From: a virus
Direction: 5' to 3' (one strand)
Virus record (IMG/VR): IMGVR_UViG_3300025137_005088
Span: 3,066 to 67,065 of that record
Length of the DNA stretch: 64,000 bases
The notes under the pieces are model-generated. The model ran no database searches and was not told the origin of the DNA. It saw nothing but the letters and a program-made list of their open reading frames with translations. The translations under genes were made by a program, and so were the position numbers. Position 1 is the first letter of the stretch, and every line of letters starts with the position of its first letter. Positions 1-33,511 of this stretch are shown here, piece by piece.

Positions 1-469
1 CATTATCAAAGTTTGTTTGACGTTTTGTATCATTGTGCAAATCTAAACTTTCATACTCATGTTTAACTGCACTCCAATCTTTCATCCATGTTGTACTCAG
101 CTCAGGCTTGCATGTTCTACATCTGAAGTTACACAAGTTACTCATTTTTAATTCTAATACTGGAACAACAAACGGCATCTCCGTTGTACATGTTGTAGGG
201 ATCATGTGTTGTCTAGTCTTGTTCATGCTTTGTCGCATACTAACTGAACCTTGGTCTTCCATATCCCAACACTGAAAACAATGTTTATTGCGTACACCTG
301 TTAATAAATCTTTTCTTAGTTGCTGTTGACGCTCACTGTTCCATGCTTGCTCGAAAGTTATGTCTTTTATATTGCCTAATGTATCTCTACTACGACAACA
401 AGGAGTTATATCACCATTGGGTCTGGTGCTTAGGTGTGTAAATGGTAATGCACAAAATGTATCAGTCAT
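1..469 (-). CDS. N-terminal twitch-domain radical SAM protein (3' end outside window)
   Basis: Not in the ORF track; translated by hand from ATG at 469 (ATGA overlap with the stop of 466..1440): MTDTFCALPFTHLSTRPNGDITPCC...HCFQCW...LELKMSNLCNFRCRTC. CxxxCxxC motif present; frame open to position 1. Confidence 0.88.
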   Translation of the reverse strand, partial: MTDTFCALPFTHLSTRPNGDITPCCRSRDTLGNIKDITFEQAWNSERQQQLRKDLLTGVRNKHCFQCWDMEDQGSVSMRQSMNKTRQHMIPTTCTTEMPFVVPVLELKMSNLCNFRCRTCKPELSTTWMKDWSAVKHEYESLDLHNDTKRQTNFDN

Positions 470-1440
470 GCTGTTTCCAACCATTTAGTTGTATTAAGGT
501 CAGCCGCACAGTTGCACCATTGTTTTGCACATATAACAGGATCATTTTCAAGTGCGAATCCAGTTTCAATATTACCTAGTACTCCGCCTTGCTTGCACGT
601 TGCTCTATATACACTACCGTCATTGTCTATCATCAGTGTTTCAATACCAGCCATGCACTTCCATTTTTTAAATGTATTCCATTTGTTTTTGGTTAGTGTA
701 TTAACATTGTCTAACCATTGTTCTTCTTTGGTAAACAATTCACAATTTAATTCTGCTGTACCTGCACGATTAAAACTTTCCATATAGTCTAGCTCAGCTT
801 GATTATAATAATTCTCTGCTCCAGCGTATTGTATACCAGCAAACTTCATACCACTGCTATAAGGTTTATTCATTTCACCTGTCTGTAGATTGGTCATTGG
901 TCTAATACGTCTTATATTAAATTGAATTTCATTTGCATTGAGCCATTCAACTACTGAATGTATCTCTTGTAATTTTCCAGGCAAGTACATTAAATGTACT
1001 TTTACTTGCTTGCGATTTAAATTACTGAGTACATGTTTCATATGATCTACACGCAAATATTCAAAGTGCCAACTGAATATCAAACTGTCAATTAACTCTA
1101 ATGCACGTTGATATTTTTCCAATGGTAAACTACCATTTGTTATAGTACTGCATTCTTCTACTCCGTAACGACTAAACAATTCTAATATATCTAGTATACG
1201 CGGGTGTACAAAAGGCTCACCACCAGTTATGCTCATGCGTATTTTTTTGTCAGCATAAAACTCACGCATTGTTTTCACAGCATATTCGAACTTTTCAAAA
1301 GGCAAGTGCTTGCTTTTGTTGTCGTGTAGGTCTGCACCACAATAACTGCAATCAAAGTTACAGCGTCTACCCATGTTCCATTCAATGCGTACCCACTCTT
1401 TATACTTTTTATTGCTGTGTTCTACTCTTACTAATTGCAC
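466..1440 (-). CDS. radical SAM protein with C-terminal twitch/SPASM-like domain
   Basis: CNFDCSYC, ITGGEPF, TITNGS; C-terminal WKCMAG...ATC...CAKQWCNC. Confidence 0.9.
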   Translation of the reverse strand: MQLVRVEHSNKKYKEWVRIEWNMGRRCNFDCSYCGADLHDNKSKHLPFEKFEYAVKTMREFYADKKIRMSITGGEPFVHPRILDILELFSRYGVEECSTITNGSLPLEKYQRALELIDSLIFSWHFEYLRVDHMKHVLSNLNRKQVKVHLMYLPGKLQEIHSVVEWLNANEIQFNIRRIRPMTNLQTGEMNKPYSSGMKFAGIQYAGAENYYNQAELDYMESFNRAGTAELNCELFTKEEQWLDNVNTLTKNKWNTFKKWKCMAGIETLMIDNDGSVYRATCKQGGVLGNIETGFALENDPVICAKQWCNCAADLNTTKWLETA

Positions 1441-2711
1441 TAAAACTCACCTTCCAGTTCAGGTATATAATCTAGTACATTTGTTCCTCTTATATGATCT
1501 AGTTCTCTAGTAAAATGTTTGAATAATTCCCATTCTTTTTCTTTGTATTTGGGATTTTCAAGTGCCGTTCTTATGCGATCCATGGCATGATAGTTTTTAT
1601 CCCATTTATCTAATACACGTTGTTTGATATGAGGTGGCATATTATTGATGTCTAGATAAGCAGGCTTTGATACTAGATCTGCAAAATTATTTGGTCTTTC
1701 ATATCTAGTTGGACTGTCACTGGTTCTGTCGGCTACCAAATGCAACCAATGATCTAAATCTCCAGTAACTTGGTCTATCCAGTCAGATAAATTTTGTAGA
1801 TCAAATATATTATATGTGCTGATTGCAATACTAAAATGTCCTTTTACATTATCAAATTGATCATACCATTTTAAGTTTTGTTCCAACTGTTCTATTGTTT
1901 GTACATTACTACCTCTGATATACTGATAAAGATTACCAGTTGCTTCTATGCTGATATTGAGTATAATTTGTTTGAAATGAGGCCATAACTTTTTAAGTTT
2001 CTCAGGCACCCTTGTTCCGTTTGTGGTGTATCCTAATATAACATTACTAGCACTGCCATTTGCAATCAATATCTCTAGCACTTCGTACATACCGTCCTGC
2101 ATCAGAGGTTCACCGCCTTTGAAGTCAATGCGTTCCATTTGACTAAGTTTGTCTTCCATGTTTCTATACAAACTAGGATCTATACTCCTAGCTGTCGAAT
2201 CGCCTACATGCCTGTTAAACTGTGGATTTATTTCTTGTAACTTTTTATCTTCTTTGAACCAATGTGTGCTTCCCCAACTGCCACACATTCTACACTTTAA
2301 ATTACAGGTATTACCGAAGTTTAAGTCCATGTGTTTTAAGTTCATTGGAGGATTATCTAGGTAAGCGTCAGGTCTATTGTTTATTTTTGACAACATCCAT
2401 TGTCGTCTACTAATACCTGCGGTGCTTTCATTTTTCCAACAATCTTCACACTCCGGTGGTTTTTCTTTTTTTAACATTGCTTGTCTTAGGTTTCCCATTC
2501 CTTCCCAAGCATCTTCTAGTGTATGACCTTTATATATATTCATATGTTCAGTTCCAGCTTGCAGTCCAAGCCGATTGCTAGAAGTAAACTTACAACAAGG
2601 TTTGATATCTCCATTGGCGCCGAGTGTAATACTGGTCCATGGCACTATACAAGTAGGAAGATCACTAGGCCAAGCATCACCTATCCTATAATCTTTATTA
2701 ATACGGGTCAC
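1440..2711 (-). CDS. N-terminal twitch-domain radical SAM protein
   Basis: TCIVPW...KPCC...ECEDCW, then GNTCNLKCRMC, FKGGEP, TTNGT. Confidence 0.9.
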   Translation of the reverse strand: MTRINKDYRIGDAWPSDLPTCIVPWTSITLGANGDIKPCCKFTSSNRLGLQAGTEHMNIYKGHTLEDAWEGMGNLRQAMLKKEKPPECEDCWKNESTAGISRRQWMLSKINNRPDAYLDNPPMNLKHMDLNFGNTCNLKCRMCGSWGSTHWFKEDKKLQEINPQFNRHVGDSTARSIDPSLYRNMEDKLSQMERIDFKGGEPLMQDGMYEVLEILIANGSASNVILGYTTNGTRVPEKLKKLWPHFKQIILNISIEATGNLYQYIRGSNVQTIEQLEQNLKWYDQFDNVKGHFSIAISTYNIFDLQNLSDWIDQVTGDLDHWLHLVADRTSDSPTRYERPNNFADLVSKPAYLDINNMPPHIKQRVLDKWDKNYHAMDRIRTALENPKYKEKEWELFKHFTRELDHIRGTNVLDYIPELEGEF

Positions 2712-4114
2712 AGTAATTCTGCCAATATAGGAAACACCTCCGGAAACTTGTTCCCCCAGTTGCGTTGTTTATTAATTAAATTTAACCATTGTTTGGTTTC
2801 AGGAAGTCTAGCACTCCAGTCTTCTTGATTCATAAAGTTAATGATACCTTTATAACGTTTAATACCATATGGATTATCTAAAAATGTTTCTTTATCAATA
2901 CCAGCTTCTTGAACACCAGTAAATCTATGCCAGTTTTCATCTATCCAAGGATAAAACTCTTGTTCATATTTGTCAGTTACCTGCTGTTTAATGTGTTGGG
3001 GTAATACTTTTAGGTTAAGTTGTGGTGGCCAATAAGCAAAATGCATGTTAATTCCACCTGCACCCAAGGGCCATTTGTTTATTTTCTTAAACCCTTGATC
3101 AACTTTCCACTTGACAAACTCTGGTATATAATGTACATTAAGAGCCATAATGGTAGTAGCTGTGGTAACTTCTACTTGCGGAGCAGTTTCATCCAGTTTC
3201 CAAAACACTTCTTCTTGATGTTGCCACACACTGGGATAGCGTATATAATCGTTGTGTTCACCATGTGCATCTATGCTGTAGTGGAAACGTACACGTTTAA
3301 ACTCTGCCCACAGATCAAATAGATCATCACGCCATTCAACTGCATTTGAGTTGTAGCGTAGTTCTATATTCTTGGCATAACCTTGTTTAATACATTCTTC
3401 TAATAGATCGTAGTGTTGATCAATAATTAAACTTTCACCGCCAGCAAAGTATAGTTGATACATGTGTGGAACTTGTTCCATAAGCTCTTTCCAAAAGCGT
3501 GGATTGTTCATGTGCCAGTTGTATGTTGCTCCGTGATTCTTTCCTTTGTTTTGCCAACCTTGACTATTTTTTAATTTTTCATTATCTATTTGTGGATAAA
3601 TGCTGTTCCATTCTTTTACCCAACCACTTGAATCATGTGGGCTACACATAACACACGCTAGCTGACACTTTGTTCCCATACGCAAATCAATATAGCGTAT
3701 TTTAGGCTCTACTCTGCCGTCAGCTTCTGTAGCTTTGGCTAGGTCAAATAGGTCATATCTATTGCCCCAATAGTCTGTCTCCCAGTTGCGTTTGCTTAGA
3801 TGCCCAGCTTCCTCCTCTTTGTAACACTTTAAACAAGGTGCTGGCTTCTCTCCACGCAACATCATTTTGCGAACATTACGCATGTAATCCGAATTCCATG
3901 CATCAGTTAAACTGGTGTGATTGAAGTTAGCGGGAACACCGTCGTCGTTTTTAACTACGCCAACTTCACCGCCGCCAACTTTTTTACTACTATCTGGGTC
4001 TTGAACACTGCTGGCATTACTTGTACAGCATGTTCGCATTTTGCCATCTGGTCTACTTGATAAGTGTAACCAAGGTAACGCACAAAATGTTGGGCTAATT
4101 TTGTCTGTTTTCAT
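2708..4114 (-). CDS. N-terminal twitch-domain radical SAM protein
   Basis: FCALPWLH...RTCC...PCLKCY, then GTKCQLACVMC, FAGGE, YNSN, YIRYP. Confidence 0.9.
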   Translation of the reverse strand: MKTDKISPTFCALPWLHLSSRPDGKMRTCCTSNASSVQDPDSSKKVGGGEVGVVKNDDGVPANFNHTSLTDAWNSDYMRNVRKMMLRGEKPAPCLKCYKEEEAGHLSKRNWETDYWGNRYDLFDLAKATEADGRVEPKIRYIDLRMGTKCQLACVMCSPHDSSGWVKEWNSIYPQIDNEKLKNSQGWQNKGKNHGATYNWHMNNPRFWKELMEQVPHMYQLYFAGGESLIIDQHYDLLEECIKQGYAKNIELRYNSNAVEWRDDLFDLWAEFKRVRFHYSIDAHGEHNDYIRYPSVWQHQEEVFWKLDETAPQVEVTTATTIMALNVHYIPEFVKWKVDQGFKKINKWPLGAGGINMHFAYWPPQLNLKVLPQHIKQQVTDKYEQEFYPWIDENWHRFTGVQEAGIDKETFLDNPYGIKRYKGIINFMNQEDWSARLPETKQWLNLINKQRNWGNKFPEVFPILAELL

Positions 4115-4129
4115 ATATGTATTTAACTA

Positions 4130-5212
4130 CTATGTAAATTGTTCAGCAAAGGGATCAAATTCTGTTCCGCACTTCATAGCACATACACCTAATTTTCCTT
4201 GCTTTACACTGGGTAAATTCCAACTATTTTCAATATTATTTAACAATGATCCTTGCATAACTGTGTGTAGATCATTGTTTATTACATCAATTCCCTCTTT
4301 CCCGCCGGCGAGATCAATATGTTCCCACACTTGTTCTATACGATAATCTTTGTGCCACCACTTGTACATACGACCAGCAACCCAACAACAAGGCATTAAT
4401 AATCCTTCTGCCGTAATAAAGATTGATTTTTCTTCAGCTACTTTGCATTTTATATCACAACTATCATAATATTCACGCATACTTCCATAAGTTTTTTCTA
4501 TTTCTTTTTGTTTTAATAGTGCTAGGTTTTGATTGCTTAATTGTTTGGGCTTTTCTAATAGCTGTGTTTCAATACCTTTTCTATTTTTTGCCTGGTGCGT
4601 GTCTTTCTTTTGACTATTAGCATTAAAGAATCTGCCTGACTTTTTCTTTTGAAAACGTTCTACACCCCATGATTTAGCAAGTGCTTCAGCTTCATCAACC
4701 TGATGTTCATTATGTCCAAATATAATGTAGTCCCAACGTGCTCTACCGCCAGCATCAACGAATGCTCGCATGTTGCGTTCTACTATATCCCATACAACAT
4801 TTTGCCTATACAGATGATTAGTGTCGCTAAGACCGTCAACTGAGAATATAACGGTACCTTTCTTTCCAATTGTTTTAGCAAGTGCTTGCCACCATTTAAC
4901 ATCTTTTGCTCCAGCGTTTGTGTTCATACTTAGCCACATATCTTTATTGTGACTTCTAAAATATTCAAATACTTCCAGCGTATCCTTGGCTACTATAGGA
5001 TCGCCCAGGTTACCACACATGTACATGGTGTTTAATTGTTTAATAAAGTCAGGTGTAAAGATCGCTTGACAGTCTTGTAAACTTAATTCACTATTATCTA
5101 TGTGGCGGTTGTCTACACCACCATTTTCATTTCTATCACACATTGGACATGCCGCCTGACACTTTTGCGTAATTTCCAAATGCACTGATCTAATATCTTC
5201 ATAGCTATACAT
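4130..5212 (-). CDS. radical SAM protein with C-terminal SPASM/twitch domain
   Basis: CQAACPMC, GNLGDP, NTNAG, FSVDG; C-terminal KC...LMPCC...CAMKC. Confidence 0.88.
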   Translation of the reverse strand: MYSYEDIRSVHLEITQKCQAACPMCDRNENGGVDNRHIDNSELSLQDCQAIFTPDFIKQLNTMYMCGNLGDPIVAKDTLEVFEYFRSHNKDMWLSMNTNAGAKDVKWWQALAKTIGKKGTVIFSVDGLSDTNHLYRQNVVWDIVERNMRAFVDAGGRARWDYIIFGHNEHQVDEAEALAKSWGVERFQKKKSGRFFNANSQKKDTHQAKNRKGIETQLLEKPKQLSNQNLALLKQKEIEKTYGSMREYYDSCDIKCKVAEEKSIFITAEGLLMPCCWVAGRMYKWWHKDYRIEQVWEHIDLAGGKEGIDVINNDLHTVMQGSLLNNIENSWNLPSVKQGKLGVCAMKCGTEFDPFAEQFT

Positions 5213-5429
5213 CTAATATCAGTTTTACATCCTTGCCAGGACCTACACGACTGGGCAGGTCTCCGTATGTATTTACATACCATTCAATCACTGCACGGTA
5301 CCATAGTTGACTGTTGTGATGTGCTTGTTTGTTGAATTGATGAATATTGTTGTTGGTTGCCGCCATAGCACTCAATGCCCTAGCACTTTCTATTTGTAGA
5401 TCTCTCAGTTTTAGATCGTCTAAATTCAT
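5205..5429 (-). CDS. hypothetical protein (74 aa)
   Basis: Tiles between neighbours with short overlaps; no recognisable motif. Confidence 0.7.
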   Translation of the reverse strand: MNLDDLKLRDLQIESARALSAMAATNNNIHQFNKQAHHNSQLWYRAVIEWYVNTYGDLPSRVGPGKDVKLILDV

Positions 5430-6457
5430 TTCTTTCCAATCAACATAAACCTATTATAAAGTTGCGTATCCAATTCACCTTCATAGTATATTGTACGCAT
5501 TGGATATTTCTTTTTTGCTTCTTTAACGTTTTTTACACAATTAATATGTTGTGGATTGCTAAAATAATCATTTGTTTGTAAACACACTAAAGTATCCTTA
5601 GGCAAACGCTCAAACCAAGTTTCGTTCATGTGTTCACAACTGGTGTTTATAACTAGGTCAGGCTGAACCCAAATTTCTACGTTGTTGCCTTCCATATTTT
5701 TGGTTCCTACTATAAAGCTAGCTTCATCGTCGTAGGTAATATCATCAACATCTTGCCATACACTCTTAAACTGCCACTGGTTATTAGTTTGTATATAGTT
5801 AAAATCATCTGCCATTTGTATGCACTGAACATCTTTTTCAAGACTTAAATATTTTTTAATATCAAAATTTTGAAAAAATAACTGTGCAACAGTAGCATAC
5901 CAGCCTCCGTATTGTACTACTGTGCCTAACTTAGGAGGGTGTGCTATTCCTGTTTGTTCTGTTACAATTTTTTTAAGTTCATCTACCATCCATAACTTGC
6001 TACACATTTGTCCTCTGCTGAAATGCTCATTCAGACTTGCCTGTGTTTCCCATTTAATGCACCAACTGCTGATTCTTCTAATATATTCGTCGTCGATGCA
6101 GTGTGCGATATAACGAGCTATCTTTCTATGCGTGACATATTTCCAGCCTATATGATGTGACATTAGTATGTTAATAAATTCTTCACTGAATTCGATTCGT
6201 CCTCTGTTTATTTCACCAACTATTAATCTTTTTATTTTCCAAATATTACCATGTAATACTGCTTTTTTAATATTCATAAACATATCAAGTTGAGGATGAT
6301 CAATATGTGTAAGATATTCTTCAATTCCGTGTATCCAAAAGAAGTCTAACGTGGGTTTGTATATTATTAATTGTTCCCCGTCTTCACCTTTAATTACCTT
6401 TTCTTCACCTATTAGGAGTTTACCGTCTTCGTTTATTTCGTCAAGTTGCGGCATCAA
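5426..6457 (-). CDS. putative class I SAM-dependent methyltransferase-like protein with N-terminal extension
   Basis: VVQYGGWYA glycine loop, acidic residue after the next strand (SLEKD), DLVINTSCEH. Confidence 0.6.
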   Translation of the reverse strand: MMPQLDEINEDGKLLIGEEKVIKGEDGEQLIIYKPTLDFFWIHGIEEYLTHIDHPQLDMFMNIKKAVLHGNIWKIKRLIVGEINRGRIEFSEEFINILMSHHIGWKYVTHRKIARYIAHCIDDEYIRRISSWCIKWETQASLNEHFSRGQMCSKLWMVDELKKIVTEQTGIAHPPKLGTVVQYGGWYATVAQLFFQNFDIKKYLSLEKDVQCIQMADDFNYIQTNNQWQFKSVWQDVDDITYDDEASFIVGTKNMEGNNVEIWVQPDLVINTSCEHMNETWFERLPKDTLVCLQTNDYFSNPQHINCVKNVKEAKKKYPMRTIYYEGELDTQLYNRFMLIGKK

Positions 6458-7145
6458 ATGTCTCCTTTAACCATTCAAAATCATTAATAAGATTTAATGT
6501 TTTTGCATTATTTTTATATGCTCGACCAAAGTCAGCGCCTTGCTTTGCTCCTAGTATTGCGTATTCACCGTTCTGTCTCGTATCGCCTTTGCTTTGCCAT
6601 ACCTTTAATCTGTACTCATTGTCAGTATTATCACCGTGTTCAATGACAGCACTGGCTAGTTTAGTACATTCTCTAAATGCACTGCGCCATGCATTAAAAG
6701 GATCTGTATTAAATGCTGTAATATTACTCACTTGAAACTTGGGCACAAATGGACAACCTATACTTGTTGTCATATCTACATTCCAATCCTTTGCTTCTAA
6801 TAGTGCTTTGCGTGGGAACAGCTTTGCTCCGCCATATCCATACAATAGATCATTTACTGGATTTTGACTACGCCATACAAACACACAGTCACTTTCATAC
6901 ACTCCGGGCCAATGTTCTTTATTATGTCTCGGTGTAAACTTAAAATTAAACTGTTCGTCTATAATAGCATCAGCATCAATTACATAAAAGTTTCTCGTTT
7001 CTGCTAGTTTAGCCGCGGCTTTGTGTGCCGCAAAAATGCCTTTAACACCCTGTACACGCTTGGCGAGGGGTGCGAACAGTTGTAGTAATTCAAAGTTGTC
7101 ATCAGCATATGGCTCATGATAGCTAATCTGAATAACATCTAACAA
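6441..7145 (-). CDS. GT-A fold glycosyltransferase-like protein
   Basis: ISYHEP, AAHKAAA, FYVIDADA (DxD), YGYGGAKL; paralogous to 29334..30311. Confidence 0.7.
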   Translation of the reverse strand: MLDVIQISYHEPYADDNFELLQLFAPLAKRVQGVKGIFAAHKAAAKLAETRNFYVIDADAIIDEQFNFKFTPRHNKEHWPGVYESDCVFVWRSQNPVNDLLYGYGGAKLFPRKALLEAKDWNVDMTTSIGCPFVPKFQVSNITAFNTDPFNAWRSAFRECTKLASAVIEHGDNTDNEYRLKVWQSKGDTRQNGEYAILGAKQGADFGRAYKNNAKTLNLINDFEWLKETFDAAT

Positions 7146-7168
7146 ATTAAATTCTCCATATATAGTTT

Positions 7169-7196
7169 ATTATACACGTTAATTGCAAAAAGTCAA
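7169..7196 (-). promoter_or_regulatory. sigma70-like promoter
   Basis: Minus strand reads TTGACT-N16-TATAAT, then a GGAG RBS before the TTG start at 7145. Confidence 0.65.
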
Positions 7197-7310
7197 TTAC
7201 TCATATATAAAAGGATCTTTGTCCTTTAGTTCTTTCATTTTCTTTTTACGCCATTTGTACTCTTTGTATTTGGTCCAAGGTAAAAGAATAAAATCGATTA
7301 TTGTTTGCAT
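7197..7310 (-). CDS. small basic protein (37 aa) ending DPFIYE
   Basis: Below the ORF-track cutoff; hand translation MQTIIDFILLPWTKYKEYKWRKKKMKELKDKDPFIYE with AGGAG RBS; fills the intergenic gap. Confidence 0.75.
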   Translation of the reverse strand: MQTIIDFILLPWTKYKEYKWRKKKMKELKDKDPFIYE

Positions 7311-8275: not shown

Positions 8276-9033
8276 TATCCTAACTTTTTGAGACTAGCTA
8301 TTTTAGCACTGTCTCCTAAATATTCTTTTGTATTATCCCAATCCTCATATGCATAATTTCCAGTAACATGCCATATTGCCCAATCATTTGCTTGTACGAA
8401 GTTGTGTCCAGTGGGAAATTGTATAGGATCTAATAGGTCAACTTGTGTATTTGTTAAATGTTTAATATGAGTATTAACAAATAATTGACAAGTACTTGTG
8501 TAACCGTTAGCATACAAGTAATCTGTATTACACATACTTATGTTAGTTTCAGTTGCTCGCATTCCGTACATACCTGTACCACAGTTATAATCACCATGCG
8601 TCTTCAAAGGATAACCTAACCATGCATATTGTTTTACACTTTGACATAGTTGATCTGCACCCAGGGCAAAGTGTTGTTGTACTGTTTGAGTATAATCTTT
8701 TTGTGCTACACAGTCAACATCAGTATAAAACCAATTTTTGCCTTGTTGCATAATCTGTTGACCAATAATAAATTTATATACAAACACATGATGACTGCCT
8801 TGTGGTATGTGTACTGTGGGAACACGTGACTGCATTGCGTGATAGCTTTGCAAGTCTAATGCTACATACAACATGGGTATACCCAACTGTTTACAACTCT
8901 CTGTCCAATTCATTGTTAGTGGTAATACCGTTTCGTCTCCCATACACCAAAACACTGTGTCTGATTCAACACTATCGCAATAATCTCTAATTGATTCTAG
9001 CACTAGAGTCTCCCTGATAAAATGCTTGCACAC
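8263..9033 (-). CDS. nucleotide-diphospho-sugar transferase (GT77-like); probable GTG start 9003
   Basis: LYVALD, WFYTDVDCV (DxD), CGTGMYGMRAT, LLDPIQFPTG, AIWH. Confidence 0.7.
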   Translation of the reverse strand: MCKHFIRETLVLESIRDYCDSVESDTVFWCMGDETVLPLTMNWTESCKQLGIPMLYVALDLQSYHAMQSRVPTVHIPQGSHHVFVYKFIIGQQIMQQGKNWFYTDVDCVAQKDYTQTVQQHFALGADQLCQSVKQYAWLGYPLKTHGDYNCGTGMYGMRATETNISMCNTDYLYANGYTSTCQLFVNTHIKHLTNTQVDLLDPIQFPTGHNFVQANDWAIWHVTGNYAYEDWDNTKEYLGDSAKIASLKKLGYWYI

Positions 9034-13293: not shown

Positions 13294-13308
13294 AATCCAA
13301 TACCCGCA

Positions 13309-25688: not shown

Positions 25689-26691
25689 CTACTGTTTTCC
25701 CCTCAGTAAGTTTATAACCAATTGCCTGATTAAATTCTGGATCTGGTACTACGTCAAAACTTCCAACTTTCAGCATTCCCCAAGTTAGCATATCAAATCT
25801 ATTTCGAGTATCAGTCTTTTTAATCTTATAACCGCCCCAGTAGTTGTCTAAACTGTGATTTAAATGATCTAATGCTTCTTCATGTGTTCTCCGATCACCA
25901 CACCAAAACATTAGTTCACCTGCATAACAACATTGTTGTTCTACTAAATCAAAACTACTACTTGTCATTTTTATTGCATTGTACTCATTATCGTCATACA
26001 TTTCAATCATTATGTTATCGTAGTCATACCCAATTTGTGTAGGATATAAAAATATTTCACCTGGATTTCGTTCCATACTAAAACGATCAACCCATTCATC
26101 ATCTAAGTAATGAAACTGATGATTAAACTTTAATCCAAAGTTTTGTAAGTTTGTTTCCTGTGTAACAGTTGTGGTTACATCTCTTAATACTTTAAGTGAA
26201 TGAAAAATATGAACTAACTTTTCAATATGTCTTGTGATTCCTTGGTCATTAAGTACGCGATAGATTAGTATACATTGTGTTTGCATTGGATTAATAATGT
26301 CTTGATGTACTATTAGTCCCCATTGGTGATCTATTTTTCCTGCATCCATTTTATACCAATCTTGTAATGGGACGATCTTTTCTAATGTATTTTCAATTTG
26401 AGTAAATGCCTGTCCATTACTCATTACTGTATGTCCTAAAATTTCACTCAATGGAATGTTAGCAGTGTTATATCCATCGGCAATTTTATTCCATTCTTCT
26501 ATTTTATCATTTAGAATAGGAACGATTTGATATAATCTTTCTAATGCGTGGTGTTTATGATACACATTCCAATGCGTTACTTCCGGAACTCCAACAATAT
26601 CCAACCCTAAATTAAACCAGTCTGCAAATATATCGCATTTGATTAGTTGGTTTTCTTTTTTATCGTTTTGCAATTTAAATTCAAACTTCAT
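25675..26691 (-). CDS. hypothetical protein
   Basis: Long ORF; start moved to ATG 26691 (MKFEFK) to avoid a 128-nt overlap; no family recognised. Confidence 0.7.
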   Translation of the reverse strand: MKFEFKLQNDKKENQLIKCDIFADWFNLGLDIVGVPEVTHWNVYHKHHALERLYQIVPILNDKIEEWNKIADGYNTANIPLSEILGHTVMSNGQAFTQIENTLEKIVPLQDWYKMDAGKIDHQWGLIVHQDIINPMQTQCILIYRVLNDQGITRHIEKLVHIFHSLKVLRDVTTTVTQETNLQNFGLKFNHQFHYLDDEWVDRFSMERNPGEIFLYPTQIGYDYDNIMIEMYDDNEYNAIKMTSSSFDLVEQQCCYAGELMFWCGDRRTHEEALDHLNHSLDNYWGGYKIKKTDTRNRFDMLTWGMLKVGSFDVVPDPEFNQAIGYKLTEGKTVDAVG

Positions 26692-27979
26692 ACTTGTTCC
26701 ATATTTTATAAAGCTCTGCAAAGTCAGAATTAAAATCTGTCTTACGCATTTTATCAATACTGCGAATGTACTTGTTGAGGGGAAGCCACTTGTCGCTCCA
26801 GTCCTCACTGTTCATAAAGTTTGTCATGTGCTTTAATTCTTGCACTTTATTCTTCTCTGGATACTTCAACATGAAGTTATCAATTTTTTCTGTAACAATC
26901 TGTTTCATTTCTTTAGGTAATACTTTAGCACACATGTACTGTGGATAGTGTAACACACCAGGATGAAACATTCCTTGGTGATCATGTATTCCAATTTTTT
27001 TATAGTTTTGGTCAAACAAAAACTGTGCAAAGTCTGGCAAATACCAAATGTTTAATGCACTTACAGTACATAATACTTTACCAACAATATGGTCAGCCGC
27101 GTTTTCTACTTTGTCTAGTGTTTCGTGTACAGTTTGCCAATTAGTTGGATAGCGTAACCATTTGTTCATTTCGCCTATTCCGTCTATACTAAGCATAAGT
27201 TCTACAAACTTAAAGTGACCCCACAGTTCTAATATATCATCTGGCATAATAGTACCGTTGGTATGATAGCGTAGTTCTATATGTTCAGCATGTCCACTTT
27301 CGACACATTTCTTTAAGAAACGTTTATGGTTCTTTAAGTATAAAGGCTCGCCTCCTGCAAATATAAAGTGACGCATGCCAGCTAACAAAGGATCTATCTC
27401 TTGTTCCCAAAACTCGTCATCAGCGGCCCAGTCATATTTGTTGTTGCAATGGTCTTGTATTTTCCAATCCCAGTCACCTTTTACTTCAGGATTGTCGTGA
27501 CTTAGGTCTCTGATCTTTTCTGCATCTTTGACCCACTTACTTGAATCAGTTGGTCTACACATTACACACTGTACGTTACAAGTATTACCTAAACGTAAGT
27601 CTAATGTAATCACATCTTGGTCTAAGTATCCGTCTTCTTTAGTGCTTGTAATTAGTTCGTCAATATATTCTCTGCCAAGTTTTTTAGCCCATAAATTGTT
27701 TTCATTCATTCTGTGACTGCGTATGCCAGCCGCTTCTTCTTTCCAACAATGCTTACAAGCAGGCAATGCTTTACCAGCTATCATATCTTTTCTAGCATTT
27801 TTGAAATAGTAACTATTCCATACTGCATTTATATCAGCATTGTTTAAGTTAATACGTTTATCTTGTGTAGGCTGAGCTAGACAGCAAAGCAAGGCTGTGC
27901 CGTCTGTATAAGTTGCCATGTGCATCCATGGAAGAATACAAAATTTCTTTCCATAGTCTTCTAAAAAATCTTGTGCCAT
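26681..27979 (-). CDS. N-terminal twitch-domain radical SAM protein
   Basis: FCILPWMH...LLCC...ACKHCW, GNTCNVQCVMC, FAGGEP, HTNGT. Confidence 0.92.
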   Translation of the reverse strand: MAQDFLEDYGKKFCILPWMHMATYTDGTALLCCLAQPTQDKRINLNNADINAVWNSYYFKNARKDMIAGKALPACKHCWKEEAAGIRSHRMNENNLWAKKLGREYIDELITSTKEDGYLDQDVITLDLRLGNTCNVQCVMCRPTDSSKWVKDAEKIRDLSHDNPEVKGDWDWKIQDHCNNKYDWAADDEFWEQEIDPLLAGMRHFIFAGGEPLYLKNHKRFLKKCVESGHAEHIELRYHTNGTIMPDDILELWGHFKFVELMLSIDGIGEMNKWLRYPTNWQTVHETLDKVENAADHIVGKVLCTVSALNIWYLPDFAQFLFDQNYKKIGIHDHQGMFHPGVLHYPQYMCAKVLPKEMKQIVTEKIDNFMLKYPEKNKVQELKHMTNFMNSEDWSDKWLPLNKYIRSIDKMRKTDFNSDFAELYKIWNKYEV

Positions 27980-29331
27980 TATTCTACCAACTTTCTAATA
28001 TTTTCATACAACTCGTCATCGACAATACTAAAGTTGGTATTACGTTGCTTGTCCCATACCTGTGTCATCTTTACAAAGTCTTGTAACTGTTCTTTCCAGT
28101 TATCTAACTGCGGTTGTTCTAAATATCCTACAATACCATCTACGCTATTTTTTATCAACCAATTCTTCTCATATAATATATTACACTTTTCTTTGAATTC
28201 GAGCAATCTATTTTTTGCATTGACTCTCATTTCAACAGGTAAATTTCTCACATCTAAATACGGAGGATGTGTATTAATTAATATGTCAACGCCAATACTT
28301 TTCCATTCTAGTTCTGGTTTTCCTGCATAAAATTCTTCACCTAACTCGTGTGCAAGCCATAGTATTTCATGTATTCTGTTCACATTATAAATTTGTAACA
28401 CAGGACTTATATTGCTAGAAACGTTTGGTAAACTTAATATGCTTCTATAGTTTCTCAGTATAACGTCCCAACTCTTGGTGCCTCGTATGAATTCATTTAC
28501 AACACCTATGCCATCTAAACTAGCGTTGATGTCCACGCTTTCGAACTTACCAATACTATCTAAAAACTTTTGGTTTGCATTTGTACAGTTAGTATTCATA
28601 AAAACATTAATGTGCTTGCTGTGACCTTGTTCGGCGGCATAATTCAAAAACTGCATATTATTTTGAATCATAGTAGGCTCGCCTCCGGTCATGTAAACTT
28701 TTCTTAGTTTAGGCATCCAATCGTAAATATCTTTCCAAAAATCATCAGCATCGAACTTTTCTCTATATTCTTTACTATTGATCCAATCTGGACGTTTTCC
28801 ATATGTCTTTTCTTGTATACGAGTATAATCTTCTTCAACATCGGTGAGCTTTACATCTTCTTTAGCAATAGTACTACTGTTAAAACTGTTGCACATTCTA
28901 CAACTAAGATTACACAAATTACCTAAACGCAAGTCTAAATAAAGGGGGTCGTGTTCTGGTAACTCAAAGTCATTGTTATAGCTTGCTTCAATGCGTTCAT
29001 GAATAGCGTCTTCGCCTATACGGCGTTCCCACTCCTCATTGTGCATTTGTCTAAAACTTTTTTTACCTACTTCTTCTTGTAAGTAACAGTGTTTACAACT
29101 ACTAATTTCTTCACCTTGGATCATTGACATGCGTATATCTTTCATGTCTTTTCCGTTCCAGGCTTCTTTTAGTGTTGTACTATTGATGTCCAGTATTTTT
29201 CCATCTTCGCTACGTAGGACACTGGGTTTGGCAATACAACAGAAGTCAATGCTTCCGCTGGTATTGACCATCATGCTCAACCATGGGTAAACACAGAATG
29301 TCTCTCCATACAATTCATCCCAATCTGCCAT
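27979..29331 (-). CDS. N-terminal twitch-domain radical SAM protein
   Basis: FCVYPW...DFCC...SCKHCY, GNLCNLSCRMC, TGGEP, NTNCT. Confidence 0.92.
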   Translation of the reverse strand: MADWDELYGETFCVYPWLSMMVNTSGSIDFCCIAKPSVLRSEDGKILDINSTTLKEAWNGKDMKDIRMSMIQGEEISSCKHCYLQEEVGKKSFRQMHNEEWERRIGEDAIHERIEASYNNDFELPEHDPLYLDLRLGNLCNLSCRMCNSFNSSTIAKEDVKLTDVEEDYTRIQEKTYGKRPDWINSKEYREKFDADDFWKDIYDWMPKLRKVYMTGGEPTMIQNNMQFLNYAAEQGHSKHINVFMNTNCTNANQKFLDSIGKFESVDINASLDGIGVVNEFIRGTKSWDVILRNYRSILSLPNVSSNISPVLQIYNVNRIHEILWLAHELGEEFYAGKPELEWKSIGVDILINTHPPYLDVRNLPVEMRVNAKNRLLEFKEKCNILYEKNWLIKNSVDGIVGYLEQPQLDNWKEQLQDFVKMTQVWDKQRNTNFSIVDDELYENIRKLVE

Positions 29332-29333
29332 GC

Positions 29334-30311
29334 TTACCCAATACTGTCGTCGACTTGGTCTTCTCTAATCATAGCACCCAGTCTATGTGGGTTTTTATAA
29401 ACCGTCTTAAAAAATCTACTTCCTACGTGGTCCATGTCTGTAATTTCAAAATCCAAGTCACTCCTAAGTTTATCACCTAGTTCAATTGTTTTAGCTTTGA
29501 GTTTGTCCCAATTCCAACTTACACCAGTATTTACACACATTTCACCACCGCCTTCAAACTCAGGAAACAGTTCTTCGTTAAACATTTTAGTTAACCAATC
29601 AAAATCTCTAACATTGCGCCAATCCCATTTACGTCTTTCAATATTGGTCATATAGCATCCGAGTCTTGCACCATATATCGCCCATAGTCCATTAACAGCA
29701 TCTTCACCTACTGTCATCCATACTAGCAATCTTTTATAATTTTCGTAGTGTATTCTTTTAATGTCTGCAGGATCAACTACATCACCGCCTTCTAATCCCA
29801 TCTTAACGCCTTCTCGGAAACCGGCACGCCATGCTTGTAATGGTGATCCGTTATTAGCTACATCACAATATACATTGTTCATCTGTATATAACGTATGTT
29901 CCAACAAAAGTCAACCTGTGCGGCTTTATCACTTTCAGGAGCCGCTTCGTGTGTACGCATTCTATTAACTACATCAACGGGCCAACACTTGATGCCGCCA
30001 TTGCCATATACCAATCCGTTTACTGCATTTTTTCCTGCCCAGCTAATCACATCAGTTGGAGTAATTCTATTCATATCTAGTACAGCATTAAAAAAATCTT
30101 CTCTTACAATATTATCTGCATCGACTGTAACAAATCGTTCAGTTTCAGCTAGTGCCGCCGCGGCTTTGTGTGCGGCATCGCTACCCCATACTCCGTGACT
30201 GCGTTTTGCCCACGGACATTTATCTTGTAGGTCTGCCCAATTTTGTTCTGCGTTAGGCTCGTCATAGCTGATATATATTATATCAAATTCTGTAACTGGC
30301 GTTAGTGTCAT
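29334..30311 (-). CDS. GT-A fold glycosyltransferase-like protein
   Basis: ISYDEP, AAHKAAA, FVTVDADN, YGNGGIK, AWRAGFRE; paralogue of 6441..7145. Confidence 0.7.
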   Translation of the reverse strand: MTLTPVTEFDIIYISYDEPNAEQNWADLQDKCPWAKRSHGVWGSDAAHKAAAALAETERFVTVDADNIVREDFFNAVLDMNRITPTDVISWAGKNAVNGLVYGNGGIKCWPVDVVNRMRTHEAAPESDKAAQVDFCWNIRYIQMNNVYCDVANNGSPLQAWRAGFREGVKMGLEGGDVVDPADIKRIHYENYKRLLVWMTVGEDAVNGLWAIYGARLGCYMTNIERRKWDWRNVRDFDWLTKMFNEELFPEFEGGGEMCVNTGVSWNWDKLKAKTIELGDKLRSDLDFEITDMDHVGSRFFKTVYKNPHRLGAMIREDQVDDSIG

Positions 30312-30314
30312 TGT

Positions 30315-31322
30315 TTACTCCGATTGGTTAATGTAGTCAAATGTTAGATCGACATTGGTTTCTCTACATAAAATTCCACATTTAGTTAAGTCTAAATTTG
30401 GTGTAGATATTTCTAAAGTTCTATCCCATCCGATACTTTTCAATGGTAGAACAATATGTTCTAGTAACTGACTTGGATTCACTGGATCTGTTATATATAA
30501 TCCTATATCAGTATATATTTTACTGTCTTGTGGGTTTTGAAAATTACTTCTGAATTGAGTGACCTCACCTTTTTTAATTATTGTAAAGTCTGTCGCAACG
30601 TCTCCAAAAACTTTAGTAGGTTTAGCAAATGATCTTCTTCTGCTATATCTGGTTCTATAATCTATTCCTGTAAAGTTTGCTTTTCTCTGTAGTCTATAAC
30701 TAGAAAATATTTTCTTAGTCATAATACTCATTTCACCTAGTCCGCATATTCTTCTCAGTGGAGCCATATCAAAAATCATATAGCCTTCTTCAATTAATTC
30801 ACCAGGATCAATTTCTATTGTTTTAACTAGATAGTTAGGATCGTTCTCTCTAATAAGAAAAAGTGTTATAGGGTCGTACTTTCCATCTTTTTCTGGATTC
30901 AAACTGATGTTTCTAAAAAAACGTTTACCTGTCATTCTATATAGTGTGTCTTGATTAAAGTTTACTTCCATTTTCCAACTATTAATGTATAGTATAATAT
31001 TAATATCAGCTTTAACTTTTTGATTAACTGGTACCATACTCAGTCGTCTTTCAGCTTCTTTAATTCTCAAAACTGCTGATTTTTCAACTAATCTAAGTTC
31101 GTGGTCAACATCAACTACAGCAAATTTTTTAGGATCAACATGACCCATAAGTATTTGTCTAGCATCGTCACTGTCTGTTACAATAAAAGGACTTTTTATT
31201 TGATCCTTTTCTCTATTTGTAACCGTGACAATATCACCTGCTTCGTCATCATAATAAACACACCACTTGGGTGCAGATTTATCGCTCTTGTAATCTCTGA
31301 GTAAGGTTTGTTCTGAAGACAT
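30315..31322 (-). CDS. hypothetical protein
   Basis: 335-aa ORF coupled to its neighbours; two weakly similar segments (LFLIRENDPNYL and LYITDPVNPSQL). Confidence 0.75.
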   Translation of the reverse strand: MSSEQTLLRDYKSDKSAPKWCVYYDDEAGDIVTVTNREKDQIKSPFIVTDSDDARQILMGHVDPKKFAVVDVDHELRLVEKSAVLRIKEAERRLSMVPVNQKVKADINIILYINSWKMEVNFNQDTLYRMTGKRFFRNISLNPEKDGKYDPITLFLIRENDPNYLVKTIEIDPGELIEEGYMIFDMAPLRRICGLGEMSIMTKKIFSSYRLQRKANFTGIDYRTRYSRRRSFAKPTKVFGDVATDFTIIKKGEVTQFRSNFQNPQDSKIYTDIGLYITDPVNPSQLLEHIVLPLKSIGWDRTLEISTPNLDLTKCGILCRETNVDLTFDYINQSE

Positions 31323-32193
31323 CTACTATTTCATCTGTTAAAAACGTTTCATCACTATAATGAATAATTCCACTGCCGATAACGCTATTTTCTATTTGTA
31401 TTTTCTTGTTATTGGTTACCCAATAATTTAACATATCAGTCCAGTTACCAGGAGCTTCGTCTGGATTGTTAAACACACCATGTGACAGTGTATGCAAATC
31501 GTAATGATTATTAAGTTTTACACCAATATCGTCTGTATGATCAACAAAGTGTGTAATTACATTACCCAAAACATTTTTTTGAAAATACTCTGGCTTTTTA
31601 TTTGGAAACACATGATTGTATACGTCTCTCCAGTTTTGTAATACAGGGTCAGCCATTTTAAACCATTCTGCAACTGTTTTATCCTTTTTATCAAAATACA
31701 TTAAGTTATAAAAATATCTAGGTAATTTGTATTGTGTTTCGTATTCAAATCGCCAAGTTTTGGGAACAGGAAAGTTTCTATAAGCAAGTGCATCAATGGG
31801 AACACTTATACCGTTCCTAGATGACATCACCGACCAAAGATCATTTACATCAACGTTTATGAATAGTGTATCATAATCAACATATATTGTTTCTTCATAA
31901 GGTGTTGCGTGATAAACTTGCCATAAGTTCATTCCGTGGAACCCATCTTTGTGGGCACTGTTTCCGTATGGTAATTCTATCATATAGTCAAATACATGTT
32001 CATAAAAACTTTGTACATTGCCTAGTTGACCTTTATCTACAATCAGTGTAATACTTGCATCTGGATCACATACTTTTATGCTACATGCAAGTGCATAACA
32101 ATATCGAATATTGTCTTCACCTGTATTAATACCTAATGTTACAAAACCTCGTTTAGGTGCATCATTATTTTCAATTTCAATTTCTTCAGACAC
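31279..32193 (-). CDS. GT-A fold (GT8-like) glycosyltransferase
   Basis: YALACSIK, FDYMI, TPYEETIYVDYD (DxD), IIHY. Confidence 0.7.
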   Translation of the reverse strand: MSEEIEIENNDAPKRGFVTLGINTGEDNIRYCYALACSIKVCDPDASITLIVDKGQLGNVQSFYEHVFDYMIELPYGNSAHKDGFHGMNLWQVYHATPYEETIYVDYDTLFINVDVNDLWSVMSSRNGISVPIDALAYRNFPVPKTWRFEYETQYKLPRYFYNLMYFDKKDKTVAEWFKMADPVLQNWRDVYNHVFPNKKPEYFQKNVLGNVITHFVDHTDDIGVKLNNHYDLHTLSHGVFNNPDEAPGNWTDMLNYWVTNNKKIQIENSVIGSGIIHYSDETFLTDEIVDVFRTNLTQRLQER

Positions 32194-33097
32194 TGGCTTT
32201 TTCTTTCGCTAAATCTAATAGAGTTTGGTAGTGCCTATCTAATGCACGTTTATTCATAATATGTAAGTTTTGATCTGTATGTCTGCACAGTATATTTTTC
32301 CATTGCTCTGTTCTATTGTGCTTTAAAAATACAACATCATTTAATCCATTTACTTGTGCAATGTCATCTTTTTGATCCATGTTTAACAACGGCTGGGCCA
32401 TAAAATCATGTACAAAGTCATCGTTATTCATACCATTCATTAGGTGTGTTGCAATGCTAACACAAAAGTCGGTTCTAAATAACATTTTTGGAAATTGGTA
32501 TAGCAAGCTATAATATTCCCAATTATCCTTTACATGACTCCATATATCAAAGAACAATTTGCTTTCTTCACTTTGGTCAAAATAAACTATAGTACTCCAC
32601 CAATGGTGTATACCTGCTTCATTCAAAGTTATTTCGTTTGTATATGGCATATCTCCACCTATATACTGTGCGTATCTATGCATTGCAATAGGCATATCAG
32701 TTTCAAAAATATAATTGTAAAAGTCGTTCATCAACAAATAGTCTGTGTCGAGTAACAGTGTACGCTCATAGGGTGTATGATCGAAAACTGTGTGTTTGTT
32801 ACTATTCCAAAAGGGTGCATTAAATTCGCTCCAAGGACTGTCTTGGTGCCTTCTTATATTAGTTCTTTTTTCAGTTACACTGCCGTCAATGATAATATTA
32901 TCAAATGAATCCTCAATGAGATTTTTGTCGTGACTGGTATTCATCCATTCTAACGTACCATCATCAGTAATAAGTGTAACAGGCATATTTAATTGTTTTT
33001 TTGCATACTGTGATGCTAGTATTGCAAACTTAGCATAATCTAATTCTTCATTGTTATAGCAAAATAAACAAATGCCATTTCCTTGTTTTTGTGACAT
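32186..33097 (-). CDS. GT-A fold (GT8-like) glycosyltransferase
   Basis: FDNII, TPYERTLLLDTD (DxD), FRTDF, LHIMNK; paralogue of 31279..32193. Confidence 0.72.
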   Translation of the reverse strand: MSQKQGNGICLFCYNNEELDYAKFAILASQYAKKQLNMPVTLITDDGTLEWMNTSHDKNLIEDSFDNIIIDGSVTEKRTNIRRHQDSPWSEFNAPFWNSNKHTVFDHTPYERTLLLDTDYLLMNDFYNYIFETDMPIAMHRYAQYIGGDMPYTNEITLNEAGIHHWWSTIVYFDQSEESKLFFDIWSHVKDNWEYYSLLYQFPKMLFRTDFCVSIATHLMNGMNNDDFVHDFMAQPLLNMDQKDDIAQVNGLNDVVFLKHNRTEQWKNILCRHTDQNLHIMNKRALDRHYQTLLDLAKEKASV

Positions 33098-33100
33098 TCA

Positions 33101-33503: not shown

Positions 33504-33511
33504 CTGTTTTT

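Follow-up and report, generated by a model that had tools for sequence, protein, structure and literature searches.

Gene content of the island

The stretch analysed here (hereafter the window) comprises 64,000 nucleotides of the IMG/VR virus record IMGVR_UViG_3300025137_005088, a linear record of 67,065 bases of which the window takes bases 3066 to 67065. Directly behind a module of fibre and baseplate genes it carries an island in which genes for radical S-adenosylmethionine (rSAM) enzymes are interspersed with those for glycosyltransferase-like and other tailoring enzymes. An earlier note, made from the letters alone, had counted 12 rSAM genes in the window, and the CxxxCxxC motif is indeed present in all 12 at the starts it listed (2-484 and the genes at 466, 1440, 2708, 4130, 8987, 16112, 17340, 19131, 24651, 26681 and 27979); over the whole record the motif occurs in 14 of 49 open reading frames (ORFs). 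The rSAM profile PF04055 likewise matches the record in 14 places. Thirteen of these matches exceed the curated cut-off, the exception being 2708-4114, which reached 24.6 bits against a cut-off of 29.5 yet scored 418 bits with the family model NF033640. Every gene between 1 and 58199 lies on the minus strand, and among the 35 junctions of the block 28 overlap, six are spaced by 0-20 nt and one is a gap of more than 20 nt, as the note had described for a co-oriented, overlap-coupled block. Baseplate and fibre genes lie upstream, and the block is truncated both at the left edge of the window and at the end of the record, which bears out the further statement that it continues from these genes and runs off the left edge. 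The GC fraction is even along the window, at 0.32-0.39.

Seven proteins of the record belong to NF033640 (275-418 bits, cut-off 170), an uncharacterised family with the curated name 'twitch domain-containing radical SAM protein'. In these proteins, which we call N-twitch rSAMs, a Cys-rich domain stands N-terminal to the CxxxCxxC core, and the Pfam SPASM matches fall within residues 11-98, ahead of the core at about 130-310. Five N-terminal Cys and the core triad are invariant in 25 diverse members. The seven paralogues are mutually 22-31% identical in an all-against-all BLAST comparison and are therefore old paralogues. No NF033640 member over cut-off was found in any of 14 control genomes, and a literature search found no paper naming N-terminal twitch, N-terminal SPASM or NF033640. 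Sorted by BLAST and NCBIfam, the rSAM proteins of the record comprise the seven N-twitch members, one distant N-twitch-like protein (16112-17386), three small proteins of the rsA type (466, 24651 and the core of 19131), two with a C-terminal SPASM-type domain (4130 and 17340) and one DesII-like fusion. The features of the window are as follows (aa, amino acids; NDP, nucleoside diphosphate; SDR, short-chain dehydrogenase/reductase; PLP, pyridoxal phosphate; GT, glycosyltransferase).

2-484, minus: N-twitch rSAM, N-terminal 161 aa; SPASM at residues 11-73, CxxxCxxC at residue 118; NF033640 340 bits (cut-off 170); the complete version of this gene, at L001:2353-3549, encodes 398 aa
466-1440, minus: small rSAM of the rsA type, 324 aa; PF04055 50.8 bits; weak best matches to viperin and MoaA
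1440-4114, minus: two N-twitch rSAMs (1440-2711 and 2708-4114); NF033640 294 and 418 bits
4130-5212, minus: rs4130, a canonical rSAM with a C-terminal Cys-rich SPASM-like tail; PF04055 30.4 bits; weak MftC and PapB maturase matches
5205-5429, minus: conserved 74-aa protein without Cys, overlapping the methyltransferase stop and the rs4130 start
5426-6457, minus: helical N-terminal domain followed, in the C-terminal half, by a class I SAM-dependent methyltransferase, by fold match
6441-7145, minus: GT2-like glycosyltransferase candidate; paralogue of 29334-30311 (36% identical); DxD motif 'DADAII'
7169-7196, minus: sigma-70-type promoter-like site (11 of 12 consensus positions) in the only gap of more than 20 nt inside the block
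7298-8275, minus: NDP-sugar epimerase/4,6-dehydratase-family SDR; PF01370 145 bits, TIGR01181 107 bits against a cut-off of 365
8263-9033, minus: Nucleotid_trans GT-A transferase; PF03407 34 bits
8987-11326, minus: fusion of a Gfo/Idh/MocA oxidoreductase to a DesII-like rSAM, 779 aa; PF01408 41 bits, PF04055 39.5 bits, TIGR04426 346 bits
11281-12768, minus: NodU/CmcH-type carbamoyltransferase; PF16861 176 bits, PF02543 110 bits; NodU model 135 bits, far under its cut-off
12769-13293, minus: 174-aa protein with an HExxH motif and a signal-peptide-like N-terminus (hydrophobic segment 1-19); weak DUF6647 match
13309-13698, minus: short HxGH-type nucleotidyltransferase-like protein; PF01467 22.9 bits, weak NCBIfam match
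13691-14116, minus: truncated APS-kinase-like P-loop protein; PF01583 30.8 bits over profile positions 5-90 of 152, weak NCBIfam match
14085-16115, minus: three proteins without a family match, the last two (14624-15469 and 15456-16115) paralogous (E 4.5e-10)
16112-17386, minus: distant N-twitch-like rSAM; SPASM at residues 50-115, before the core; NF033640 71 bits, not a member
17340-18134, minus: short rSAM with a C-terminal SPASM domain (191-258); PF04055 53 bits
18113-19213, minus: HisC/CobD-like class I/II PLP enzyme; PF00155 94 bits, TIGR01141 138 bits against a cut-off of 277
19131-20522, minus: rSAM with an N-terminal extension of about 260 aa; PF04055 44.6 bits
20461-21126, minus: FkbM methyltransferase; PF05050 39 bits
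21107-22540, minus: MORN-repeat and methyltransferase-like protein; MORN 24.4 bits, weak FtsJ
22537-23283 and 23271-24104, minus: two sulfotransferase-like paralogues (E 1e-28); PF03567 22.3 bits (cut-off 22); N-terminal K-x-G-G-T-T-L motif
24094-24654, minus: 186-aa protein to which the scans assigned no function
24651-25688, minus: small rSAM, rsA2; PF04055 43 bits
25675-26808, minus: protein without a family match in Pfam or NCBIfam
26681-27979 and 27979-29331, minus: two N-twitch rSAMs, each with N-terminal SPASM and PF04055; NF033640 385 and 357 bits
29334-33097, minus: transferase block, with a GT2-like gene (29334-30311), an unassigned gene (30315-31322), a gene GT8-like by motif (31279-32193) and one GT8-like by fold (32186-33097)
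33101-33448, minus: conserved 115-aa protein with which the island opens; found in the same place in L109, L141, L150 and L171; dN/dS 0.025
33474-33503, minus: sigma-70-type promoter-like site (11 of 12 positions) in the gap that separates the island from the last fibre-like gene
33512-58199, minus: structural module upstream of the island, with fibre-like genes, a 3804-aa virion protein, a gp6-like wedge, gp25, a hub/lysozyme-like protein and a gp53-like protein
33512-36263, minus: fibre-like genes, including 33512-34675 and 34677-35588
58218-58225, minus: TATAAATA motif at the operon start

The transferases and other tailoring enzymes named in the earlier note fared unevenly. Among its five glycosyltransferase-like genes, one stands by Pfam (8263-9033) and one by fold (32186-33097), and the remaining three come from a language-model lead or paralogy (two) and from a DxD motif (one). 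The four ORFs at 29334-33097 gave no Pfam match and no PDB match by phmmer; 29334-30311 is GT2-like by the language-model lead (Atlas) and 6441-7145 by its paralogy to that gene. The structural model of 32186-33097 (pLDDT 91.4) retrieved glycogenin, XXYLT1, LARGE1, UGGT and GlyE as best PDB folds, with glycogenin at E 3e-7 and TM 0.41-0.49; in BFVD, a library of viral structures, its matches include GT8 proteins of mimivirus and of cyanophages. The GT8 sequence profile PF01501 gave no Pfam match at E 0.01, and precomputed Pfam domains are lacking in all 120 homologues listed; the DxD residues D117 and D119 are invariant in 41 sequences, and together with the predicted fold they mark the protein as GT8-like. 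For 5426-6457, all listed Foldseek PDB matches of the AlphaFold2 model (pLDDT 82) were methyltransferases, the best at E 7e-7; the protein has no Pfam or NCBIfam match, and a profile search against PDB gave nothing meaningful. Of the methyltransferases claimed, the FkbM gene was seen as a family match. The gene called UXS encodes an NDP-sugar SDR, not specifically UXS, its best NCBIfam match being dTDP-glucose 4,6-dehydratase. The carbamoyltransferase proved to be NodU-like and the PLP enzyme HisC-like, whereas the sulfotransferases come down to one marginal match and its paralogue, and the two proteins labelled SGNH (14624-15469 and 15456-16115) have no Pfam or NCBIfam family match. A DegT-type sugar aminotransferase was considered for 18113-19213 and rejected, its best matches being HisC-like; no DegT-family 4-aminotransferase was found among the 47 window ORFs scanned with Pfam. 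The Gfo/Idh/MocA-DesII-like fusion had no match among 50,697 phage records. A weak NanM match (NCBIfam) falls in the 19131-22540 region.

The T4-type late motif TATAAATA occurs at three sites in the window, all on the coding strand (58218 at the operon start, 36223 and 15601), against a chance expectation of 11. Directly after the first of these, the long late operon opens on the minus strand with a cytidylyltransferase-like gene (57606-58199, 34.6 bits), which is not structural. Only two gaps of more than 20 nt lie on the minus strand in or directly before the block (7146-7297 and 33449-33511), and each holds one of the sigma-70-type sites listed above; only six sites of this quality occur in the 40 kb scanned. 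Overall promoter and terminator counts equal chance, and only the two gap sites were used here. Both are conserved in a close relative, the viral contig G002 (both hexamers at 7169-7196), with a ribosome-binding site after each (a Shine-Dalgarno-like AAAGGAG behind the site at 33474-33503). Transcription of the island is thus likely to come from the unmodified host polymerase, in addition to read-through. Contigs of four marine metatranscriptome runs contain near-identical pieces of 150-400 nt of the island and of the structural genes; DNA carry-over is possible, contigs do not allow expression levels to be ranked and stretches lacking cover carry no information, and these pieces were not used for timing.

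Phage context, constraint and a compact core module

CheckV puts the record at 19% completeness, which implies a genome of roughly 350 kb. The gp6-like baseplate wedge and the 3804-aa giant virion protein match PHROGs at 863 and 753 bits, the gp25 match reaches 29.9 bits, that of gp53 is weak, and a divergent gp47/gp46 pair lies beyond the structural module. The best isolate matches of gp46 and the wedge, at 38-48% identity, are Phosso, PA5oct, Atu_ph07, Erwinia pEa_SNUABM_47 and Serratia BF, jumbo myoviruses with genomes of 287-490 kb; pelagimyophages and cyanomyophages are not the best isolate matches for either protein. Megablast of 20 kb of structural genes against phage records gave no match. 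Orthologues P0082 and P0120, 72-73% identical, lie on contigs of 343-347 kb. The carrier would be a jumbo myovirus of marine origin, not in culture, with relatives in the group of Atu_ph07, PA5oct and Serratia BF, and the block a genuine accessory island; the closest cultured relatives lack it. The island begins 63 nt past the last fibre-like gene, and synteny with the tail genes, a check that the earlier note had proposed, is found again far from this record: the order wedge, giant protein, fibres, island is present in three of five divergent contigs with wedge proteins 39-40% identical, that is, in all three that are testable, the other two being just 23 and 44 kb long. Within the last fibre-like protein (33512-34675) a Gly-Tyr repeat is encoded at 33740-33900. 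Glycogenin glucosylates tyrosine; the presence of such a fibre beside a GT8-like enzyme with glycogenin as its best fold match is taken as a coincidence and nothing more.

The contig G002 is an 87-kb viral sequence collinear with the record at 87-89% nucleotide identity. The full block is seen there, about 43 kb long and ending near base 7,800, and the contig gives 18 PF04055 matches; its extra part holds one further rSAM gene besides three additional N-twitch ones, together with genes for an Asp/Arg-hydroxylase-like protein and for a member of the PNP_UDP_1 phosphorylase family. The last (182 aa, L012:11602-12150, minus strand) lies inside the island extension and might, we infer, dispose of 5'-deoxyadenosine, the rSAM by-product. 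Past the block follow plus-strand genes for an AAA ATPase, a 2-oxoglutarate (2OG) oxygenase, a DUF2201 protein, ThyX and a B12-rSAM protein. The best isolate matches of the DUF2201 protein are Phosso (43%) and PA5oct (40%), and thus genes on both flanks, gp46 on one and DUF2201 on the other, are best matched by the same jumbo myoviruses.

Orthologues in G002 exist for 36 of 37 block genes, with dN/dS values of 0.025-0.30, compared with 0.06-0.23 for 12 structural genes. Phage sequences that turn up time and again in marine and seawater metagenomes thus encode oxygen-sensitive Fe-S enzymes, and selection apparently maintains these. The sole block gene without an orthologue by tblastn, 12769-13293, looks like a recent insertion. 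The genes at 7298-14116 together with 20461-21126 share 65-84% amino acid identity with G002, and the other block genes 84-98%; synonymous divergence is up to three times lower in these other genes. The divergent part of the insert hints at recombinational exchange of a sugar-nucleotide and tailoring module.

These comparisons bear on whether the block is a bacterial island joined to phage DNA in assembly, the chimera that the earlier note had named as its refutation. Stop-codon use does differ, all 12 structural genes ending in TAA and the island mixing TGA, TAG and TAA, and the closest cellular relatives of the rSAM proteins are bacterial. However, TGA stops are fitting in the island because of its ATGA-type overlaps, the composition is uniform, and genes matched by jumbo phages stand on both sides of the block in G002. 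The same junctions recur in independent viral contigs, and at least 14 DNA runs from about ten studies cover the stretch from 28000 to 37000, with 0.29-0.99 of the sampled words present. Given the shared flanks, the orthologues and the cover of the junction in DNA runs, a chimera is therefore very unlikely, and we give it almost no credence.

The island is one of many. A paralogue profile built from a 25-sequence alignment (A2) of N-twitch rSAMs matched at least 600 stretches in IMG/VR, of which 581 of 600 were confirmed relatives; 80 loci were kept, on contigs of up to 328 kb. Family size is large, with 46,970 cluster representatives at E <=1e-3 and 7,322 (50% identity) at E <=1e-30. Many top-scoring representatives (P0121-P0146) are tandem double-length fusions of 770-1466 aa that match the N-twitch profile twice. 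By tblastn of window proteins against the 80 loci, N-twitch rSAMs were found in 80, rs4130 in 69, the methyltransferase in 63, rsA and rsA2 in 62 each, the GT2-like protein in 49, the carbamoyltransferase in eight, the GT8-like proteins in five to six and the DesII-like protein in one. The statement in the earlier note that phages carry few rSAM genes needs qualifying in view of at least 581 IMG/VR relatives, and rSAM-rich T4-like marine phages are already mentioned in the available parts of two papers (PMC5332604, PMC7029224). Among the 50,697 phage records, N-twitch homologues occur in four: Vibrio phages K566 and K567, Ralstonia phage RsoM2USA and one marine single-cell virus. In K566 (255 kb, L097) a mini-cluster of three rSAM genes lies among hypothetical genes at 161548-165950 of the record; as a cultured phage, it might provide a tractable system in which to study what N-twitch rSAMs do.

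ORF maps of seven loci revealed a compact island of about 16 kb with a recurrent order: fibre-like genes, 115-aa protein, two GT8-like genes, an ORF of about 190 aa, two GT2-like genes, methyltransferase, an ORF of about 74 aa, rs4130 in a single or double copy, a 2708-type N-twitch rSAM, other N-twitch rSAMs and finally rsA. The 2708-type protein is 57-59% identical in distant phage islands. The small ORF, present in six of the seven loci and absent in L171, is 5205-5429 in the window, where it was missed at an 80-aa ORF threshold and by the earlier note and fills an apparent gap. Across distant phages few genes of the island are conserved as well as this one. Its homologues are 41-96% identical in 24 of 160 loci by BLASTP; the protein is free of Cys and conserved over its whole length (mean column identity 68%, alignment A4), and it gave no meaningful sequence match in PDB. 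A complex prediction of rs4130 with it scored 0.00, without controls, and speaks neither for nor against binding. The comparison of loci shows an ancestral core common to many large environmental phages. It consists of four transferases (two GT8-like, two GT2-like), the class I methyltransferase, the SPASM rSAM, the 74-aa protein, several N-twitch rSAMs and small rSAMs. In the window this core is split by an insert of about 22 kb (7298-29331) with six more rSAM genes, the NDP-sugar SDR, the Gfo/Idh/MocA-DesII-like fusion, the carbamoyltransferase, kinase-, nucleotidyltransferase- and sulfotransferase-like proteins, methyltransferases and the PLP enzyme.

Possible substrates and acceptors of the tailoring enzymes

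The reading that we favour, tentatively and as no more than quite possible, is that the island directs the cytoplasmic assembly and radical tailoring of a glycan on a protein acceptor made by the phage. This acceptor would in the first place be a virion protein, such as a tail fibre, whose gene lies just upstream; the 74-aa protein is a less likely candidate. The transferases would build a short oligosaccharide, and the methyl-, carbamoyl- and sulfotransferases would cap it. Each rSAM paralogue would abstract a specific hydrogen atom and so epimerise, oxidise, deoxygenate or cross-link a sugar or a residue of the acceptor; rSAM diversity would then diversify the surface chemistry of the host-recognition apparatus. 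Glycan chemistry and a cytoplasmic site are well supported, and so is the long-term link to the fibre module. The parts assigned to the rSAM enzymes follow family precedents and would hold as far as these do: DesII acts on an NDP-sugar, SPASM enzymes act on peptides and BtrN-type twitch enzymes on carbohydrate-like substrates. In a crude hydropathy scan of 49 ORFs, each showed one hydrophobic segment at most, and no flippase, polymerase or transporter was found among them, which favours a cytoplasmic acceptor; the polytopic membrane proteins of a Wzx/Wzy or ABC surface-polysaccharide cluster were likewise not found among the 49.

Several points weigh against glycosylation of a phage protein. 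Promoters stand in both gaps of more than 20 nt and the late motif at three sites only, and hence the island may be expressed early, not with the structural genes. Within phage families a conserved order of genes is the normal state, from which no functional coupling need follow. The arrangement of methyltransferase, small ORF and SPASM rSAM looks like that of a ribosomally synthesised and post-translationally modified peptide (RiPP) cluster, bacterial rSAM arrays without transferases indicate that the rSAMs need not act on sugars, and three of the five glycosyltransferases and the sulfation genes rest on weak evidence. Of the virion glycosylation and tailoring pathway put forward in the earlier note, a phage-borne, non-chimeric, glycan-related and tail-linked locus stands, with virion proteins as a candidate acceptor.

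Remodelling of the host envelope is the first alternative to be weighed. Soluble transferases would act on lipid-linked intermediates of host lipopolysaccharide (LPS) or capsule at the inner membrane face and leave export to host flippases and ligases; the cell surface would thereby be altered in the course of infection, for instance to exclude superinfecting phages. LPS-core GT8 enzymes are soluble or peripheral, and the Asp/Arg-hydroxylase and Kdo-hydroxylase families, of which related genes occur in the G002 island and in a bacterial array, include LPS-modifying enzymes. The sigma-70-type promoters would fit early expression. A host recognition cluster of about 45 kb in pelagimyophages, with fibres, GT8 genes and rSAM cassettes, has been read in the available text as serving modification of the host O-chain (PMC7029224), and this reading of GT8-rich islands beside tail fibres also counts against a virion acceptor in the present island. 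On the other hand, with no protein showing two or more hydrophobic segments, the scans yielded no candidate for an initiating phosphoglycosyl transferase, a flippase, a polymerase or a ligase, and a cost of about 40 kb is hard to explain for a lytic phage. The best PDB folds of the GT8-like protein are protein- or glycoprotein-directed, with no LPS enzyme among them, although this is a weak point. We know of no use of rSAM arrays in envelope remodelling, and overall we regard this explanation as rather unlikely.

The 74-aa protein suggests a second alternative, in which it is a RiPP-like precursor or scaffold modified by rs4130, the N-twitch rSAMs, the methyltransferase and the transferases, the product being a glycosylated, radical-tailored peptide or small protein that perhaps ends up in the virion. 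The ORF sits tightly between its neighbours, its start overlapping the stop of the methyltransferase gene and its stop the start of the SPASM rSAM gene, it is kept in place in all six compact islands inspected and is found in 24 loci by BLASTP, and the NCBIfam names of SPASM and twitch rSAMs are typically those of peptide maturases. RiPP precursors, however, usually show a conserved leader and a variable core, whereas this protein is Cys-free and uniformly conserved, with no leader/core pattern. Family scans of the block with Pfam and NCBIfam, together with hydropathy, detected no RiPP recognition element, leader protease or exporter, and the small ORF was not found in the Bdellovibrionota-labelled arrays described below. 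A peptide product of this kind is, in our estimate, unlikely.

Hypermodification of DNA, with a complex glycan or an amino-acid-derived adduct placed on hydroxymethyl-pyrimidines to evade restriction, is a third alternative. T4-like phages glycosylate their DNA, and where phages hypermodify thymidine, P-loop kinases work together with PLP and rSAM enzymes; the island holds a P-loop kinase-like protein, a PLP enzyme and rSAMs, has early-type promoters, and adjoins ThyX and a 2OG oxygenase in G002. Nevertheless, it is tied to fibre genes and not to replication genes, and the best GT8 folds act on proteins or their glycans. Family scans found no dNMP hydroxymethylase, no alpha/beta-gt-type DNA glycosyltransferase and no amino-acid:DNA transferase in the window, which is weak evidence since the record covers about 19% of the genome. 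We hold a DNA substrate to be improbable.

Relatives of the N-twitch rSAMs are also encoded by bacteria, at least 341 of them among at least 600 matched bacterial stretches. The scan took one genome per species, and the best 80 loci are those most similar to the phage query, so their taxon share may be biased; among these 80, 54 carry Bdellovibrionota-type labels (Bdellovibrio-, Bacteriovorax- and Oligoflexia-like). Two loci, L017 and L018, are collinear with the phage at 58-88% protein identity and come from metagenome-assembled genomes labelled Gammaproteobacteria (a 108-kb contig) and Crocinitomicaceae. They are probably phage contigs binned into these genomes, and their taxon labels are therefore no evidence of a host; L026 and L036, which share the core module, may be of the same kind. 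Other loci are genuinely chromosomal and carry tandem arrays, in which genes of the rsA and rs4130 types stand alongside N-twitch ones: L025 has nine CxxxCxxC ORFs in 21 kb of chromosome and L064 seven adjoining mfd, further examples including L073 and L089. Neither the transferases nor the 74-aa gene turned up in the Bdellovibrionota-labelled arrays examined, and among bacterial-labelled loci the 74-aa protein matched only in L017, L018 and L036. Pfam scans of ten non-rSAM genes inside two arrays gave weak Asp/Arg-hydroxylase, Kdo-hydroxylase-like and QueC-like matches only, from which a substrate cannot be named. An adjacency of the arrays to fibre-like adhesins was considered and rejected, the large neighbour in L064 being Mfd and the Cys-rich neighbour in L048 having no PDB relative. 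It is conceivable, if rather doubtful, that N-twitch arrays form a hitherto undescribed radical tailoring system for adhesive host-recognition surfaces shared by large environmental phages, where it would be joined to the GT8/GT2/methyltransferase core beside the fibre genes, and Bdellovibrionota, both bacterial predators; each paralogue would then install a different modification, and gain or loss of cassettes would retune host range.

Relation to known systems

Chloroviruses and mimiviruses have glycosylation machinery of their own, and neither these systems nor that of mycobacteriophages is, to our knowledge, known to include rSAM enzymes. The island resembles such systems in its soluble GT-A transferases and methyltransferases, which would act in the cytoplasm, and in the position of its genes beside structural genes. 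Glycosylation of mycobacteriophage capsids and tails is cited in the available part of a further paper (PMC12619734). The C-terminal 470 aa of 8987-11326 align with DesII over nearly the whole model, and an NDP-sugar SDR adjoins; in contrast to DesII, the match stays under the equivalog cut-off of TIGR04426 (345.8 bits against 450), the protein is fused to Gfo/Idh/MocA and the window has no DegT-type 4-aminotransferase. Like PqqE, MftC and PapB cassettes, the island has a small ORF directly upstream of a SPASM rSAM, whereas its maturase scores lie far under cut-off (at most 48 bits) and the 74-aa protein is long, Cys-free and uniformly conserved.

The closest descriptive parallel is the host recognition cluster of marine T4-like pelagi- and cyanomyophages, in which GT8 genes are commonest and rSAM cassettes are gained and lost (PMC7029224). 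Like the island, it is large and variable in content, abounds in GT and rSAM genes and lies downstream of the fibres and of a giant structural protein; the phage of this record, however, is not a pelagimyophage, its nearest isolates being jumbo myoviruses, and the portion of that paper available gives no rSAM family assignment, core module or count. A marine T4-like environmental viral genome with 12 rSAM genes is cited for Fe-S cluster metabolism, without a description of the locus in the accessible text (PMC5332604), and the likeness lies in the dozen rSAM genes, as described. Similar islands have thus already been noted descriptively, in 2017 and 2020, with their function unstated in what is available of these papers. 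A literature search found nothing on rSAM with jumbo phage and glycosyltransferase or on rSAM biosynthetic clusters in jumbo phage, and nothing relevant on Bdellovibrio rSAM paralogues. New here are the NF033640 assignment, the conserved core with its 74-aa gene, the 14-18 rSAMs in a jumbo lineage and, in parallel to these, the rSAM arrays of Bdellovibrionota.

Whatever its target, the island draws attention to an enzyme family that is very large and uncharacterised, and whose N-twitch chemistry is directly testable, the compact soluble gene set being one that could be co-expressed. Should the product of the island indeed be attached to fibres or virions, it would be the first virion modification to depend on radical SAM enzymes and would open a new axis of host-range variation in abundant ocean phages.

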